This document shows positions 9,597 through 42,378 of a stretch of 64,000 bases of DNA, piece by piece. Numbering within the stretch: the stretch's first letter is position 1; every line of letters starts with the position of its first letter. The notes under the pieces were generated by a model that saw only the letters and a program-made list of their open reading frames with translations, had not been told where the DNA came from and ran no database searches. The stretch comes from Patescibacteria group bacterium UBA6017 (GTDB lineage Bacteria; Patescibacteriota; Saccharimonadia; UBA4664): NCBI GenBank assembly GCA_002429485.1, contig DIZX01000015.1:187073-251072 (forward strand), given 5' to 3'. The position numbers were made by a program, and so were the translations under genes.

Positions 9597-9640
9597 GGCC
9601 CTGTTGCGCACCAGTTGCGCAACAGGGCCCGCGTCTTTTC
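9597..9640 (+). terminator. intrinsic terminator (GGCCCTGTTGCGCA-ccagt-TGCGCAACAGGGCC followed by cgcgTCTTTTC)
   Basis: 14-bp perfect stem and a T-run, 30 nt after the stop of the PurM-like gene. Confidence 0.6.
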
Positions 9641-9669
9641 GTCCTAATCAATAAATTCTAAATAAATCC

Positions 9670-9759
<90 letters not shown>

Positions 9760-9849
9760 CGAACCGAGAACCTCGCCATTATACGGTGAAATGCCGCTCG
9801 AGAACAAGCTTCCGACAGATGAACTCCTTACCAGAGCAAAAAATACCCC

Positions 9850-9877
9850 TTGACATCCCGCGCAGATGTCCTATAGT
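9850..9877 (+). promoter_or_regulatory. near-consensus sigma-70 promoter, TTGACA-16 nt-TATAGT
   Basis: TTGACA at 9850-9855, 16-nt spacer, TATAGT at 9872-9877. No protein-coding gene follows before the terminator at 9941. Confidence 0.55.
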
Positions 9878-9883
9878 GGCCTT

Positions 9884-9968
9884 ACAACTAAATCAGCTAT
9901 GGTATCGAACGTCCTCCTGAACTGCATGGGTAAACCTAAAGCCCCGCAGCCGGGGGGCTTTTTGTTTT
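9884..9968 (+). ncRNA. candidate small RNA (about 85 nt) of unknown family
   Basis: Bounded by the consensus promoter and an intrinsic terminator (GCCCCGCAGCCGGGGGGC + TTTTTGTTTTT at 9941-9968). No ORF, no tRNA fold, and no SRP, 6S, tmRNA or RNase P signature recognised. Confidence 0.35.
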
Positions 9969-10124
9969 TATAGCGGCTTATCACCAGATTAGTTACCGTT
10001 CTTATCTCATGAATGTACTAGGCAGTCATGAGGTCACAACGCAAGTTTCACCTCAGGCTAGCATCCTAATGCTGGGTCGGCGACCCTTTCGCTAAGTTCT
10101 TTGACAGAAAGGTTGATCACGATC

Positions 10125-11141
10125 ATGTCCGGTTACGGAAGATCTGACGATTCAGGGCGCTCTCGCGCCTCCAGCAACATTGGAATGGCGGTCATCGCCC
10201 TCCTCGTGTTCGGCGCCATCTTCGGCATTGCCGCCTGGCTGCAATTCGACAAGACGGACGGCGGGCAGATCGCCGTTGTCCGCAACGGCGGTCCGTTCGA
10301 CAACAACAACATCCGCCAGGTCATCCAGCCCGCCTCCAGTCTCACCTGGACCGGTTGGTGGTCTTCCACCCACAAGTACCCTGCCCAGCAGCGGTTCTAC
10401 ACCATCACCGCCGACCCCAACGCCGGCGACAAGACCGGCGTGGACGTGGAGCAGATCCCGACCTCAGACGGCGTCGAGGTTGGTATCCAGGGCACCGTGT
10501 ACTTCACGCTCAACCGTGACCCTGCCACACTCAAGTCATTCGACAACAAGTATGGCACCCGGACCTACAAGGTCACGAGCGGTACCGGGGCAGACGCGAC
10601 AACGGAGTTCAAGACTGCCTGGGAAGACGAGGCCGGTTTCTCCGCGTTCCTCGATCAGATCATCCGGCCGGTCATCAGCAACGACCTCCGCCAACAGATC
10701 GGAAGCTTCCCTTGCGGCGAGCTCCAGGCCTCCTGCGCACTCGTGCAGAACGGAAACAACCCCCAGGCCGTCGCGGCCGTATCTGGAAAAAGCAACTTCA
10801 ACATTGCCAAGATCCAGAACTCGGTGAACAAATCTCTCCAGGATGACTTCAACACCACCCTGGGCGGGCCGTTCATCACCGATGTCCGTTTCAACCTGGC
10901 CAAGATCACCTTGCCCGACGCGGTGCAGACTGCGATCAACAAGGCCCAGGCCGCCTTCGCAGCAGTTGCGGAGTCGCGGGCAAAGGTGCAGCAAGCCTCG
11001 GCAGATGCCGCGGCCAACGCCCAGCGTCAGCTTGGCTACAAGAACTGCCCTGCCTGTGTCACCATCGACACGCTGAAGGCGATCCCGCCGAACGTCACCA
11101 CGTTCGCTCCGGGAGCCGGCTTCGGCATCACTTCGAAATGA
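10125..11141 (+). CDS. SPFH/band-7 (HflK/C-prohibitin-like) membrane protein
   Basis: N-terminal TM helix, GQIAVVRNGG, TSDGVEVGIQGTVYF, and a C-terminal Ala/Gln coiled-coil AAFAAVAESRAKVQQASADAAANAQRQ. The ORF track starts at TTG 10101; ATG 10125 has GAAAGG upstream. Confidence 0.75.
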   Translation: MSGYGRSDDSGRSRASSNIGMAVIALLVFGAIFGIAAWLQFDKTDGGQIAVVRNGGPFDNNNIRQVIQPASSLTWTGWWSSTHKYPAQQRFYTITADPNAGDKTGVDVEQIPTSDGVEVGIQGTVYFTLNRDPATLKSFDNKYGTRTYKVTSGTGADATTEFKTAWEDEAGFSAFLDQIIRPVISNDLRQQIGSFPCGELQASCALVQNGNNPQAVAAVSGKSNFNIAKIQNSVNKSLQDDFNTTLGGPFITDVRFNLAKITLPDAVQTAINKAQAAFAAVAESRAKVQQASADAAANAQRQLGYKNCPACVTIDTLKAIPPNVTTFAPGAGFGITSK

Positions 11142-11150
11142 GGTAAGCAG

Positions 11151-11486
11151 TTGAAAGAAATCGCTGGTTTGATCGTTGTCGCTTGCTTGGTCGGGGCGGT
11201 CTTCATGACGTTTCTCGTACTCACAAAGCGACTCGACTCCATGGTGCTCAGCCACCGGCTTCGGCGCACCAAGTGGCGCCGATACGAGTACGTCGACGAT
11301 GAGGGCGACACTCATGTCGTCCTTCGGCGCAGCGTCTACAACGGTGCCGAGGAAGTGTTCGCCGACCCAGACCGAGTGGTCTCCGTCATCTACGACCAAG
11401 ATCCGGAAGCCCGAAGAAAGCTTGCGGAAGCACGGCTCGAGGCCGACCTTCAGGTCAGCCAGACCAACTACCGCTTGCCGTCCTAG
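11151..11486 (+). CDS. small membrane-anchored hypothetical protein
   Basis: TTG start with GAGGT 7 nt upstream; one N-terminal TM helix; it immediately follows the SPFH gene. Confidence 0.4.
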   Translation: MKEIAGLIVVACLVGAVFMTFLVLTKRLDSMVLSHRLRRTKWRRYEYVDDEGDTHVVLRRSVYNGAEEVFADPDRVVSVIYDQDPEARRKLAEARLEADLQVSQTNYRLPS

Positions 11487-11638
11487 CCGAGCTAGACCAG
11501 CTCAGCCCAACCTTCCCTCATCGCGGAAGGTTGGGCACCAACCCGAGCGCTCAAATGCACTTGAGTCTTCAGGTTGAAAAGCTACCAAACCATAAGCGCT
11601 TCATGGCGTAAAACCCGCTCAAATGCTACTATTTAACA

Positions 11639-12388
11639 ATGAACGTAATCGAACTCAAGGACATCGGTATGGTCTTCACCGACCGATCCGAGCCCACCCT
11701 CGCCCTGAGCCACATCGACCTCGCTATAGGTAAAGGCGAATTCGTAGCCATTATCGGTCCTTCCGGCTCCGGCAAAAGCACCCTCATGAACGTCATCGGC
11801 CTGCTCGATACGCCTACCTCGGGCGAGTTCTATCTGGATGGCAATCTGGTGGCCAGCCTCAATGATTCCAGCCTCGCCAAGCTTCGCCGTGAGAAGATTG
11901 GCTTTGTCTTTCAGAGCTTCAATTTACTCCCGCGGCTCAGTGTGGTCCAAAACGTCGAGCTCCCGCTGGTTTACGGCGGCATACCGCCCAAGCAGCGCCG
12001 CGCCCGCGCCCTGGAGCTGCTCGGCCTCGTTGGCCTGCACGACCGCGCCAACTACAAGCCCCACCAGATCTCCGGCGGCCAAACCCAGCGCGTGGCTATC
12101 GCCCGAGCCCTCGCCAATCACCCCAGCCTCATTTTGGCCGACGAGCCCACCGGCAACCTGGACACCAAGGCCTCCAAGGCCATCATCGATGAACTCCGCC
12201 GTCTAAACCGCGACACCGGCGCCACCATCGTAATCGTCACCCACAACCCCGAAGTGGCCGTGCAGACCGATCGCACCGTGACCGTTCGCGATGGCGAAAT
12301 CGTCAACGACACCTCGCAAAAGGCCTCCAAGACTAAGTCAAAGTCCGCCCCGATCGCCGACTCACCCCACCGGAGGATAACCGTATGA
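11639..12388 (+). CDS. ABC transporter ATP-binding protein (MacB/LolD-type)
   Basis: Walker A GPSGSGKST, signature LSGGQTQRVAIARAL, Walker B ILADEPTGNLD. Confidence 0.9.
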   Translation: MNVIELKDIGMVFTDRSEPTLALSHIDLAIGKGEFVAIIGPSGSGKSTLMNVIGLLDTPTSGEFYLDGNLVASLNDSSLAKLRREKIGFVFQSFNLLPRLSVVQNVELPLVYGGIPPKQRRARALELLGLVGLHDRANYKPHQISGGQTQRVAIARALANHPSLILADEPTGNLDTKASKAIIDELRRLNRDTGATIVIVTHNPEVAVQTDRTVTVRDGEIVNDTSQKASKTKSKSAPIADSPHRRITV

Positions 12389-39805: not shown

Positions 39806-39895
39806 TGGCGGAGAGGGAGAGATTCGAACTCTCGGAAGCCTTGCGGCCTCACCGCATTTCGAGTGCGGCGCACTAGTCCACTATGCGACCTCTCC
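39806..39895 (-). tRNA. tRNA-Ser (anticodon CGA)
   Basis: Manual fold: acceptor GGAGAGG, anticodon loop CTCGAAA, long variable arm, T-arm GAGAG-TTCGAAT-CTCTC, CCA encoded. Confidence 0.9.
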
Positions 39896-40129
39896 AAATC
39901 CATTCCGCTTATGTTTTGGAATGAAAATAAATATAACCAACTTAAGGTAGCATATTTCACCTGATTTGTTGAGGCTAAGAAATTTGCAACAGCTCAAGCG
40001 CCGGGGTCGAATTATACTCACAACAAATTCGGTTTAGCTCAAGCGCCGGTCACACTGCCCAACCGAAATCAATTAAGACAGCCTATAAGGGGAAAATAAA
40101 AACCCCACTTTCACGTGAGGTGTTTATTT

Positions 40130-40205
40130 TGGTGCGCCCGGGAGGACTTGAACCTCCGACCCCCGCCACCGCAAGGCGATGCTCTATCCACTGAGCTACG
40201 AGCGC
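40130..40205 (-). tRNA. tRNA-Arg (anticodon read as GCG)
   Basis: 76 nt; acceptor GCGCTCG/CGGGCGC, D-arm GCTC-AGTGGATA-GAGC, anticodon arm TCGCC-TTGCGGT-GGCGG, T-arm GGAGG-TTCAAGT-CCTCC, CCA encoded. Confidence 0.8.
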
Positions 40206-40257
40206 ATGATCTGTTAGTACCGTCAGACTTTAGCACAGCTCACGGTCAAAATAAAGG

Positions 40258-40896
40258 CTAAAAGCGCACGTACCGCGTAATCCGCTCGATAACGTCGAGC
40301 GGGCGGTCTTCCCGGGGCAGGTGCAATTCGAGGTGCCCCACAATTTCATCAAAATCTACTGTGTCGAATAAAATCACCCTGCGCGGGCTCAATCGCTTTG
40401 TCGGCTCCAGGTCAATCGAATGCCATTCCTCGTCCGGGATCACGCCAAATGACCGAAACTCAGCAAACGGATACAGACTGCCGTCAATATGCACCCCCTG
40501 GTCGCTGAGTTCATACTGCATTACTCGCGGAGGCTTGTGTGCATACACCGCCAAAGCACCCCCCATGGCAATGAAAACGACTACCTCAAGCCATAAATGC
40601 AGCCAAGCGGCCAATCCGGCCAATACCGCCACGATAAGCCCGAGAGCACCATACCAGGCTTTCGATTTATGATTATGAACGTACTCGGAAGCTTGCCAGC
40701 TAAACGCCACTTCAGGCTCGGATTCAGCCGAGCTATCATCATCGGCTTCAACCGAGCCTTCATCACCCGCATCTAAGTCCGGGGCTTGTTCGTCCAGCTC
40801 AGTTACCTGAGCTGCTTCTACTTCGCTGTCATCGACGGCTTCGACCGGTTGCTGACTGAGCTCATCGCCCATAATGCTTATCCTCTTGCCAAACAT
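40258..40896 (-). CDS. hypothetical membrane protein with acidic N-terminal region
   Basis: An Asp/Glu-rich N-terminus, two TM helices, and a C-terminal domain of about 90 aa that may be a bacterial PH-like domain. An alternative start at 40872 has AAGAGGA upstream. Confidence 0.55.
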   Translation of the reverse strand: MFGKRISIMGDELSQQPVEAVDDSEVEAAQVTELDEQAPDLDAGDEGSVEADDDSSAESEPEVAFSWQASEYVHNHKSKAWYGALGLIVAVLAGLAAWLHLWLEVVVFIAMGGALAVYAHKPPRVMQYELSDQGVHIDGSLYPFAEFRSFGVIPDEEWHSIDLEPTKRLSPRRVILFDTVDFDEIVGHLELHLPREDRPLDVIERITRYVRF

Positions 40897-40943
40897 TATG
40901 GCGCAAGCAGCGCCCAGTGTACAATATGCGTGTCAGCCTACCT

Positions 40944-41031
40944 GGAGGGGTCGCATAGCGGCCGAGTGCACCGGTCTTGAAAACCGGAGACCTTCACGGG
41001 TCCGTGGGTTCGAATCCCACCCCCTCCGCCA
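40944..41031 (+). tRNA. tRNA-Ser (anticodon TGA)
   Basis: GGAGGGG-TC-GCA-TAGCGGCCGAG-TGC-A-CCGGT-CTTGAAA-ACCGG, long variable arm, TGGGTTCGAATCCCA, CCA encoded. Confidence 0.9.
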
Positions 41032-41102
41032 AGTAGCTCGACCGCGGATTCGAACGTCGCCGGTTCGGTCGACGCCCGAAAGGGCAAGAGTGGCACAGCC
41101 AC

Positions 41103-41122
41103 AATCCCACCCCCTCCGCCAA
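41103..41122 (+). repeat. 20-nt direct repeat of the 3' end of tRNA-Ser(TGA) (AATCCCACCCCCTCCGCCAA), a candidate att-site scar
   Basis: Identical to 41013-41032. The 70-nt spacer contains a T-arm-like fragment GCGGATTCGAAC. Confidence 0.6.
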
Positions 41123-41151
41123 TTTATGCACTAAACATCGAGATCACCAGT

Positions 41152-41805
41152 ATGAGCCCAGAAAATCTATCAGAAGATCAGCAACCTGATTCAGAGGAAA
41201 TACAGCGGCACGCCGACCTCACGAATGATCTGCTCAACATTCGAGCCGAGGCCGCCCAAGAAGCCGACTATGACCCCCAGCCTATGCCGGAAGCTGGCCC
41301 CGAAGCAGGGCCGGAGAGAGATCAAATCTTCGAACAGGCCAGCGCCGAACGCGGCGGCTTTCTCCGAGACACCCTCACCTCCTCGCTAGTCAGCAACGGC
41401 CTCGACCTCGTTCCGTTCGTGGGCGGCGGCAAAATGCTCGTCGAATCAATCGCCGGCCAAACACTCAACGGAGAAGAGATGACCGGCAAAAACCGGATTA
41501 TTCACGCCGCCATGGGCGCCGGCAGCCTCGGGCTGGACCTCACTGGTATCGGCGAGGCCAGGGAGAGCGCGATGCTCGCGGGTAAAAGCGTAGGCCTAGT
41601 CGGTAAACTCGCAGCCAAACTAACCGAACGCGGAGCCGTCAAATCTGGCCGAATTTTCGAGATATCGGCCGCCTTTATGGCCGCTCACCCGGATCTGACC
41701 GCAGAAGCCGAACGTGCGGCGGAATCTCAGATCAAACATCAAATTAGCAACATCAAATCCTACCGCCTGCGTAACCAGCCGCTAGACAATGCCGAGGCAG
41801 CCTAG
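41152..41805 (+). CDS. hypothetical protein (217 aa), acidic N-terminus with a Gly/Ala-rich core
   Basis: Clean ORF with no recognisable domain. Confidence 0.5.
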   Translation: MSPENLSEDQQPDSEEIQRHADLTNDLLNIRAEAAQEADYDPQPMPEAGPEAGPERDQIFEQASAERGGFLRDTLTSSLVSNGLDLVPFVGGGKMLVESIAGQTLNGEEMTGKNRIIHAAMGAGSLGLDLTGIGEARESAMLAGKSVGLVGKLAAKLTERGAVKSGRIFEISAAFMAAHPDLTAEAERAAESQIKHQISNIKSYRLRNQPLDNAEAA

Positions 41806-41985
41806 ATGACTAAACCCGAACTCGCCCAAATCATCAACCAGCTAGTCTCGCTCGGCGAAGACCAGGCTGAGCTCAATATTTGGCTGGAAATATTCGACTA
41901 CTTAGAGCCAGCGCAACAAACCGAGCTCGAATTAAACCTATCCCAAGAACTCGAGGCCCTCAAATCATCACCGCCAACCGCCTAA
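41806..41985 (+). CDS. small hypothetical protein (59 aa, MTKPELAQIINQLVSLGEDQAELNIWLEIFDYLEP...)
   Basis: Not in the ORF track (59 aa). The ATG abuts the stop of the upstream gene (TAG-ATG), and the frame is protein-like. It overlaps the 5' half of tracked ORF 41880..42236. Confidence 0.3.
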   Translation: MTKPELAQIINQLVSLGEDQAELNIWLEIFDYLEPAQQTELELNLSQELEALKSSPPTA

Positions 41986-42236
41986 AACTACCTCCGTTTA
42001 CCCTCCGCCTCAAGCTTGGCCTCGGCCTAATCTACCTTGCCGGCCTGGGCTGGGGCGCCGAATTCATCATCCCCTTCACGCACATCAGCCATAAATTCGT
42101 AATCTGGATAATCGTCCTCGTTGCGGCCGAGATCTGTTTTGTCGCCGGAGTCGCCATCCTCGGCAAGGCTCTCTACCGAGAACTCAAAACTCGCCTCAGC
42201 GCCATACTGATCTCTCGCCAACCCCCTCAAAACTAA
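41880..42236 (+). CDS. small membrane protein (2 TM in the C-terminal 80 aa); the 5' limit is unclear
   Basis: The C-terminal part is LGLGLIYLAGLGWGAEFIIPF...IWIIVLVAAEICFVAGVAILG. The N-terminal 35 codons look like off-frame translation of the 59-aa ORF, so a frameshift is possible. Confidence 0.3.
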   Translation: MAGNIRLLRASATNRARIKPIPRTRGPQIITANRLKLPPFTLRLKLGLGLIYLAGLGWGAEFIIPFTHISHKFVIWIIVLVAAEICFVAGVAILGKALYRELKTRLSAILISRQPPQN

Positions 42237-42285
42237 CCGCCTCATAGAAAAACCCCGCGGCAATCATGCCTACGGGGCTTTTCTA

Positions 42286-42378
42286 TGGCGGAGAGGGAGA
42301 GATTCGAACTCTCGCGGGGGATTACTCCCCCCTACAGGTTTAGCAAACCCGCCCCTTCAGCCACTTGGGTACCTCTCC
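42286..42378 (-). tRNA. tRNA-Ser (anticodon GCT)
   Basis: Acceptor GGAGAGG, anticodon arm CGGGT-TTGCTAA-ACCTG, long variable arm, T-arm GAGAG-TTCGAAT-CTCTC, CCA encoded. A terminator-like hairpin lies at 42250-42282. Confidence 0.9.

Follow-up and report, generated by a model that had tools for sequence, protein, structure and literature searches.

Beside the tRNA-Ser(GGA) gene on contig DIZX01000015.1 of the Saccharimonadia genome Patescibacteria group bacterium UBA6017, a near-consensus promoter is followed within about a hundred nucleotides by an intrinsic terminator, and the locus raises the question of whether these signals delimit a small RNA in its own right or the 5′ leader of the SPFH gene behind them. 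The initial annotation of the 64-kb stretch of DNA analyzed here (hereafter the window; all positions are counted from its first nucleotide) had put forward a candidate novel small RNA. We found that the promoter, two sequence blocks, a hairpin with compensatory changes, a U-tract and the linkage to tRNA-Ser(GGA) are conserved among relatives, that the unit is non-coding, and that the gene downstream of it varies. The reading that we tentatively prefer, and to which we would give somewhat less than an even chance, is that of a lineage-restricted small RNA unit, which would yield an abundant, terminated RNA of ~86 nucleotides (nt) acting through an invariant 15-mer and an apical loop, while read-through of the terminator would feed the gene behind it.

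A conserved unit divergent from tRNA-Ser(GGA)

Sites of the sigma-70 type were scored in the window as matches out of 12. The promoter of the small RNA (9850-9877, + strand), composed of TTGACA (9850-9855), a 16-nt spacer and TATAGT (9872-9877), reached 11/12, and since only three sites on both strands of the whole window scored 11/12 and none scored 12/12, its initial description as one of the best sigma-70 matches in the window was accurate. It was also the only promoter-like site that the scan returned between 8500 and 11500, where shuffled sequences gave a mean of 0.7. The homologous promoters scored 12/12 in locus L026 and 11/12 each in loci L019, L006 and L021, with a range of 10-12/12 across the variants of the RNA, and this match was kept although the spacer sequence between the boxes differs among lineages. 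On the other side lies tRNA-Ser(GGA) (9670-9759, − strand), which ARAGORN and the Rfam tRNA model (53.5 bits) both recognized, and which adjoins every homologue of the RNA. A probable −10 box of the tRNA-Ser promoter, TATAAT (9778-9783, − strand), was read from the sequence; this region, CATTATACG, is kept in relatives, and an equivalent − strand promoter of tRNA-Ser was found by the scan in L019 (11/12) and L006 (10/12). The promoters of the small RNA and of tRNA-Ser(GGA) stand back to back, in an arrangement for divergent transcription.

A conserved ACA(U/A)CU(G/A)AA begins 7-8 nt 3′ of the −10 box (7 nt in the window, where its A is at 9884). From this promoter geometry, which is kept in five variants, we infer that the transcript starts at the A of ACA(U/A)CU, and the predicted small RNA would then extend over ~86 nt from this start to the end of the U-run (9884-9969, + strand).

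Seven distinct sequence variants of the unit, each of them divergent from tRNA-Ser(GGA), were found in uncultured Saccharimonadia of at least four lineages, and these variants are of a window type (the window, L012, L011 and L026) or of a second type (L006, L019 and L021). Common to every one of them are the promoter, the ACA(U/A)CU start, the segment GCUAUGGUAUCGAAC, a paired long hairpin and an apical AACCUAA. Five variants came from searches that made no use of the RNA sequence, by way of either an SPFH anchor (84-90% amino acid identity; L006-L012), which gave L006, L012 and L011, or an MsrB anchor, which gave L026/L027. The SPFH-anchored loci keep the −35 and −10 boxes, the block AGCTATGGTATCGAAC, the AACCTAA hairpin loop and the T-run, and the rest of the spacer is barely alignable. 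Scans with exact patterns gave two genome matches (L018, which is of the L006 type, and L019) and one metagenome lineage (L021/L022/L024); when one genome per GTDB species was scanned, the matches were in Patescibacteria group bacterium UBA5147 and Candidatus Saccharimonadia bacterium. L019 and L021 also carry the promoter, the ACAUCUGAA start, the hairpin, the U-tract and the tRNA-Ser linkage, none of which was demanded by the pattern. Exact patterns would miss diverged homologues, so that the RNA is distributed at least as widely as described here. The pattern matches L020/L023 were discarded as chance (13.8 bits, with no promoter, terminator or tRNA nearby). Between lineages, the RNA is 71-94% identical, the tRNA-to-promoter spacer 28-79% and the 83 nt downstream 53-61%, which is roughly background; no other part of the intergenic region is as well conserved as the RNA.

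The first of the invariant blocks, GCUAUGGUAUCGAAC (9896-9910, + strand), is a candidate seed or protein-binding site. It starts ~12 nt after the RNA start, has no conserved pairing partner in the RNA, and is identical in 7/7 variants, including L006, L012, L011 and L026, which were found via protein synteny and not by a sequence pattern. In the window it occurs a single time, even with 3 mismatches allowed. It is followed on the + strand by the long terminator hairpin (9913-9957), which is the minimum free energy structure of the window RNA, is paired across the variants, and has three stems, S1 (9913-9919/9951-9957), S2 (9922-9925/9946-9949) and S3 (9928-9931/9941-9944), topped by the apical loop AAACCUAAA (9932-9940) with the invariant AACCUAA at 9933-9939. 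The U-tract of the intrinsic terminator, UUUUUGUUUUU, occupies 9959-9969 (+ strand), and all variants have a U-tract after the hairpin. The terminator had initially been recognized as a short hairpin, GCCCC..GGGGGC within 9938-9961, and then UUUUUGUUUUU; this short hairpin and the U-run are real, but the conserved structure is longer, namely the three-segment hairpin of 9913-9957.

With MAFFT/RNAalifold on the raw sequences, the two types were misaligned and the consensus was poor, and this approach was replaced by a hand-built structural alignment of seven sequences (A5), which was padded with N to hold its columns. Standard pairs made up 95.9% of the cells in A5, and changes on both sides were seen in 10/17 pairs. 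None of 500 shuffles of A5 reached any of the pairing measures, and in a control in which the 3′ partner was slid by 1 to 3 columns either way, pairing was 38-64% and the number of double-change pairs 0-1. A compensatory change is present in S2 within the window type (CUGU/ACAG in L011 versus CUGC/GCAG in the others), and S3 reads GGGU/GCCC in one type but CCGG/CCGG in the other, both enclosing the invariant AACCUAA loop. A covariance model built on A5 (R1) matched the window at exactly 9884-9969 (57.3 bits, E=1.5e-11) and found exactly one copy per carrier locus (42-78 bits), no second copy in the window, and no match in the related loci L025, L028, L030 and L031. The conservation and covariation analysis that had been proposed as a check of the candidate thus supported it, with a unit that recurs in seven variants and changes its stem in a compensatory manner.

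Coding potential and known RNA families

We searched Rfam 15 (4227 covariance models) for a known family that might account for the element. At the gathering threshold, only 5 tRNAs were found in the whole window and only tRNA-Ser on eight related loci. When 9600-10200 was searched at E<=10, the candidate RNA was overlapped only by Phe_leader (RF01859; 19 bits, E=1.5, gathering score 55) and rimP (18.7 bits, gathering score 47), with no family at its gathering score or at E<1, and the homologues in L006 and L019 showed no recurring family at E<=10. The initial impression that the transcript belongs to no recognizable RNA family was therefore borne out at the gathering threshold as well as at a permissive one. 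Of the further statement that neither an open reading frame (ORF) nor a tRNA lies between promoter and terminator, the second half stood, as ARAGORN found no tRNA there. The first half did not hold literally: mechanical ORFs of 35 amino acids (9866-9973, + strand, beginning inside the promoter) and 37 amino acids (9871-9984, − strand) exist, but they are not conserved, and no conserved reading frame appeared in six-frame translations of five variants.

An AUG at 9899, within the invariant block (AUG GUA UCG AAC, for MVSN...), opens short MVSN ORFs in all variants, which would suit a leader-peptide attenuator or a small-protein mRNA translated from this codon, as would the weak Rfam match to Phe_leader, a family to which the element is similar in its short transcript, its AUG and its terminator. 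However, the MVSN ORFs are 12, 12, 13, 24 and >30 amino acids long, have their stops in different registers and are unconserved after codon 4, and no Shine-Dalgarno sequence was found upstream of AUG 9899. In addition, all third positions of the first four codons are invariant together with the 4 nt before the AUG, which is not the pattern of a coding sequence. Features of a leader-peptide attenuator, a conserved translatable ORF or a run of regulatory codons, were not found, and unlike the genes behind a Phe_leader the downstream genes here are non-biosynthetic; the Phe_leader match is moreover far under threshold and did not recur in L006 or L019. Without a conserved frame or a Shine-Dalgarno sequence, and with invariant wobble positions, a coding sequence or leader peptide was rejected, and we regard this explanation as very improbable.

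We place even less trust in the view that the element is a diverged form of a known RNA, be it a small signal recognition particle (SRP) RNA, an opposite-strand tRNA-like remnant or a minimal T-box. SRP RNA often adjoins tRNA-Ser in Gram-positive bacteria and does so in many Actinobacteria, and the location beside tRNA-Ser would agree with this. The reverse complement of the 15-mer holds GUUCGAUACC, which is T-loop-like, and UGGUA is reminiscent of the T-box bulge. Yet no SRP (RF00169), tRNA or T-box (RF00230) match was obtained at E<=10 in three variants on either strand. Compared with SRP RNA, the element has 27 unpaired nt at its 5′ end and an apical loop of 9-12 nt, with neither a GNRA tetraloop nor a GGAAGCAGC-type motif; small SRP RNA was rejected on these grounds and because the element is missing in close relatives, an absence that excludes an essential housekeeping RNA. 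A tRNA remnant was rejected as well, since neither ARAGORN nor the Rfam tRNA model found a tRNA or tRNA-like element in 9884-9969 on either strand and the flanks of GUUCGAUACC allow no more than 2-3 of the 5 pairs of a T-stem, leaving the putative T-stem unable to pair. A likeness between the reverse complement of the RNA and the T-arm of the cognate tRNA-Ser, suggestive in the window and L006 and absent in L021, was treated as chance. For a T-box, finally, no Stem I or specifier fits into the 27-nt 5′ region and the downstream genes (SPFH, lipoprotein, membrane proteins) are unrelated to amino acids, and this candidate was also dropped. That the element constitutes a new RNA family, outside all catalogued ones and with a narrow and patchy distribution, is reasonably well supported.

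Downstream genes, probable read-through and possible action in trans

The gene behind the RNA in the window is an SPFH/Band_7 gene without a recognizable promoter of its own (10125-11141, + strand; Pfam PF01145, E=2.1e-16). A co-oriented, HflC-like SPFH gene has this place in the window, L012, L011 and L006; in L019 it is taken by a second Band_7 protein without BLASTP similarity to the first SPFH, in L021 by a lipoprotein gene, and in L026 by the gene of a 171-amino-acid single-pass membrane protein, which is followed by a lipoprotein. All of these products are membrane-anchored proteins or lipoproteins, and the only constant neighbor of the RNA is tRNA-Ser(GGA). It had been foreseen that the region might prove to be the leader of the SPFH gene; with the same RNA ahead of the L021 lipoprotein and the L026 171-amino-acid gene, a leader specific to SPFH was rejected. 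No promoter of at least 10/12 was found from the terminator to the downstream gene in the window, L019, L021, L026 or L006, and the corresponding stretch of L006 holds only two weak 9/12 sites. As the downstream gene lacks a promoter of its own, and as its start in L021 comes ~40 nt after the U-run, read-through of the terminator probably supplies the downstream mRNA.

The predicted read-through path contains a second conserved and structured segment, apart from the small RNA family, which we refer to as the SPFH leader (~120 nt; window 10003-10124, + strand; L006 9815-9940; L019 7011-7122; L012 328-452; L011 109-232). It precedes the two SPFH/Band_7 genes that have no mutual BLASTP similarity and is absent in L021 and L026. 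Four hairpins are predicted in it, including CUAGCAU-CCUA-AUGCUGG and GGCGA-loop-UCGCC, and at its end is an invariant UUCUUUGACAGAAAG, the CUUU of which could pair, as in a fourU thermometer, with AAAG in the region of the Shine-Dalgarno sequence. This leader, which is unmatched in Rfam, may represent a new cis-regulatory motif of SPFH genes in its own right. In L026 (4130-4215, − strand), several hairpins lie in the 230-nt spacer that follows the terminator, one of them with 12 bp of perfect pairing, CATTGCCGGGTC...ACCCGGCAATG; none is related to the SPFH leader.

Under the preferred reading, the near-consensus promoter, back to back with that of tRNA-Ser(GGA), would start transcription at ~9884, and most transcripts would terminate at ~9969 to give an abundant non-coding RNA of ~86 nt. 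Its functional surfaces would be GCUAUGGUAUCGAAC and the AACCUAA displayed atop the terminator hairpin, which would act in trans, through either pairing to target RNAs or the binding of a protein, and a minority of read-through transcripts would be the mRNA source for the accessory envelope gene behind the terminator. A promoter and a terminator of its own, as expected of a trans-acting small RNA (sRNA), are present at the sequence level in five lineages (11-12/12, and a conserved hairpin with U-tract). Inspection of the variant sequences showed that GCUAUGGUAUCGAAC could pair with the apical loop over ~3 bp at most, and a pseudoknot between the two was rejected with this maximum of 3 bp. The 15-mer and the loop are thus invariant and yet unable to pair with each other, which argues for external partners.

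Complementarity to such partners was sought over ~300 kb, comprising the window and the related loci. The one lead lies in L006 (15500-15540, − strand), where the translation-initiation region of PGI contains UGCCAUAGGAG, which is complementary to the CUAUGGUA of the RNA and overlaps the PGI Shine-Dalgarno sequence; the site is missing in two non-carrier relatives, and the complementarity, seen in a single genome, may well be due to chance. A separate observation concerns the window itself (1105-1140, − strand), where UUUUUAGGUUUAUAUGG, with 10 nt complementary to the window-type loop UAAACCUAAA, is situated in the U-tract of a terminator hairpin (GCGTACT..AGTACGC) ~25 nt past the 3′ end of an rpoD-like gene. 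This match is probably fortuitous.

Several points weigh against the small RNA unit as we read it. Apart from the PGI lead (n=1), the target scans returned matches at the level of noise. The count of covarying pairs rests on a seven-sequence alignment that was fitted to the structure by hand, conservation of a stem would be expected of any terminator, and folds of the single sequences were no more stable than those of shuffles (z-scores of −0.1 to −1.9). The pattern by which L019 and L021 were identified required a 14-mer of the block as well as the loop, and the identity of these two variants at those positions is circular. Among the five loci of the unbiased MsrB-anchored sample, the RNA is present in one (L026/L027) and absent beside tRNA-Ser(GGA) in the other four (L025, L028, L030 and L031). 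Lastly, the RNA is followed in all lineages by a co-oriented gene that itself lacks a good promoter, with the Shine-Dalgarno sequence and start codon of L021 only ~25-40 nt after the U-run, and a close gene lacking a promoter is the classical layout of a cis-acting leader.

This layout is also what speaks for the main rival explanation, a cis-acting 5′ leader or attenuator, in which the 86-nt RNA would be the premature product of a portable cassette and a factor recognizing the 15-mer and AACCUAA would decide on read-through. To the absence of another promoter of at least 10/12 between RNA and gene and the proximity of the L021 start can be added that the conserved SPFH leader of L019 begins directly after the U-run, that the downstream products are without exception membrane-anchored or lipoproteins, and that in the window-type variants the long hairpin has a nearly isoenergetic competitor, a shorter GCCCC/GGGGC hairpin, by which some conformational switching would be possible. 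However, the two competing hairpins have their 3′ strand and the U-tract in common, and because of this both would terminate; no conserved alternative pairing that could serve as an antiterminator was found in the folds and the structural alignment of the variants. There is likewise no aptamer-like fold, the z-scores being weak, and no pseudoknot between the invariant blocks. The genes controlled by a riboswitch or attenuator family normally cohere in function, whereas those found here are unrelated in sequence and form no common family, and a promoter of 12/12 would be unusually strong for the leader of an accessory gene. On balance, we consider a cis-acting attenuator quite possible, without expecting it to be the explanation. 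What stands of the small RNA proposed in the initial annotation is a discrete, conserved, non-coding unit of ~86 nt in no Rfam family; its distinctness from a generic leader or attenuator is less certain, as such a role is possible too. A more far-reaching version of the preferred reading, a dual-function unit that would combine an 86-nt RNA, acting in trans by way of the 15-mer and the AACCUAA loop, with a portable strong-promoter/attenuator cassette at tRNA-Ser(GGA), which would drive any accessory cell-envelope gene brought in behind it by recombination, and that would represent the first conserved regulatory sRNA family of the Patescibacteria/candidate phyla radiation (CPR), seems to us rather unlikely.

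Genomic setting and known systems

The stretch from tRNA-Ser(GGA) to a MacB-type ABC transporter, which is conserved, is a variable islet, the gene content of which is different in every relative (window 9760-11640; L006 9550-12490; L025 3100-4710; L026 2650-4430; L031 3370-3810) and which is empty in L030 (5850-5840). The small RNA, where present, is at the tRNA side of this islet. One may ask whether the element works at the level of DNA, with the 15-mer and loop binding a regulator or recombinase at the islet border and the hairpin serving as a terminator or insulator. Its position at the tRNA-Ser edge of so variable an islet, its patchy distribution and a loose direct repeat, GGTA..AAC(C), shared by the 15-mer and the loop would agree with such a role. 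Against it, no integrase or recombinase gene is nearby at the loci examined, the 15-mer is not palindromic, and no meaningful match to the element was obtained in a phage collection, a plasmid collection or IMG/VR, which also led us to reject an origin from these sources. Furthermore, the promoter, the conserved start and the U-tract indicate a transcript, and a loop that is kept atop a co-varying stem points to constraint at the RNA level. A DNA-level element is accordingly an improbable explanation in our view.

The exact sequence of the SPFH gene (10125-11141) is also present in the metagenome-assembled genome GCA_002413465.1. There, on contig DHWZ01000049.1 (L001 9449-9629), a run of N covers most of tRNA-Ser(GGA), the window copy of which is intact. 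SPFH homologues of 57-73% identity are found in Actinomycetota (Kineosporiaceae, Motilibacter, Streptacidiphilus), and for MsrB, whose gene lies 3 kb upstream, the best named homologues are those of Saccharimonadia, Saccharimonadales and Patescibacteria. Judged by the MsrB homologues and by the pattern matches among GTDB species, the genome is of Saccharimonadia/Patescibacteria, and only the SPFH gene has its closest outside relatives among actinobacteria, which suggests that this gene was acquired from Actinomycetota, the host phylum of Saccharibacteria. None of the features of the RNA was seen upstream of the actinobacterial SPFH homologues (L013-L017), and an actinobacterial origin of the RNA was rejected for this reason. 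The GC content is 0.558 in the window and 0.616 in the SPFH gene, and GC at third codon positions (GC3) is 0.81 in the latter and 0.54-0.65 in several of its neighbors. The compositionally distinct islet of the initial annotation was weakly supported by this SPFH value, but the adjacent ABC ATPase also has a GC3 of 0.78. Elsewhere in the window, at 39806-42378, there are four further tRNA genes (Ser-CGA, Arg-GCG, Ser-TGA and Ser-GCT), so that four tRNA-Ser isoacceptors lie within 33 kb when Ser-GGA at 9670 is counted.

No description of a small RNA from Saccharibacteria or Patescibacteria was found in full-text searches of the literature, and a 2024 perspective on Patescibacteria treats riboswitches only as future engineering tools and contains no sRNA terms (PMC11665869). 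The regulatory RNAs of Patescibacteria are essentially unexplored. An RNA that is conserved and, by its promoter, predicted to be strongly expressed could offer an entry point to post-transcriptional control in ultrasmall epibionts, within the limit that it is confined to a few environmental lineages, and the cassette of near-consensus promoter and terminator is a possible expression part for the emerging genetics of Saccharibacteria.

How, then, does the element compare with systems that are known? 6C RNA of Actinobacteria and RsaE/RoxS of Firmicutes are sRNAs with C-rich loops that have Rfam families of their own. The element is like them in being a small, highly conserved RNA with a short conserved motif in a hairpin loop and, here as a prediction, strong expression; it is unlike them in that its loop motif is AACCUAA instead of a run of C, that it forms a single long hairpin, and that it has no Rfam match at E<=10. 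SreA and SreB of Listeria are terminated leader RNAs derived from riboswitches that also act in trans. With these the element shares the succession of promoter, short structured RNA, intrinsic terminator and promoter-less co-oriented gene, which makes a dual role in cis and in trans plausible, whereas it differs from them in having no known aptamer, no antiterminator that we could find, and downstream genes that are mutually unrelated. Enterobacterial RybB, MicA and OmrA/B, finally, are trans-acting sRNAs of the seed type. Unlike these, the element occurs in Saccharimonadia, shows no sequence or Rfam similarity to them and no evident A/U-rich site of the Hfq type, has a second invariant block in the terminator loop, and is always followed by a gene without a promoter. 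Like these, it is ~80-90 nt long, has a strong promoter of its own, is most conserved in a 5′-proximal part that lacks a conserved pairing partner, and ends in a GC-rich 3′ hairpin with a U-run, the stem of which drifts by compensatory change. Altogether, the element would by its layout seem closest to the seed-type sRNAs, with a resemblance also to the leader-derived RNAs that act both in cis and in trans.

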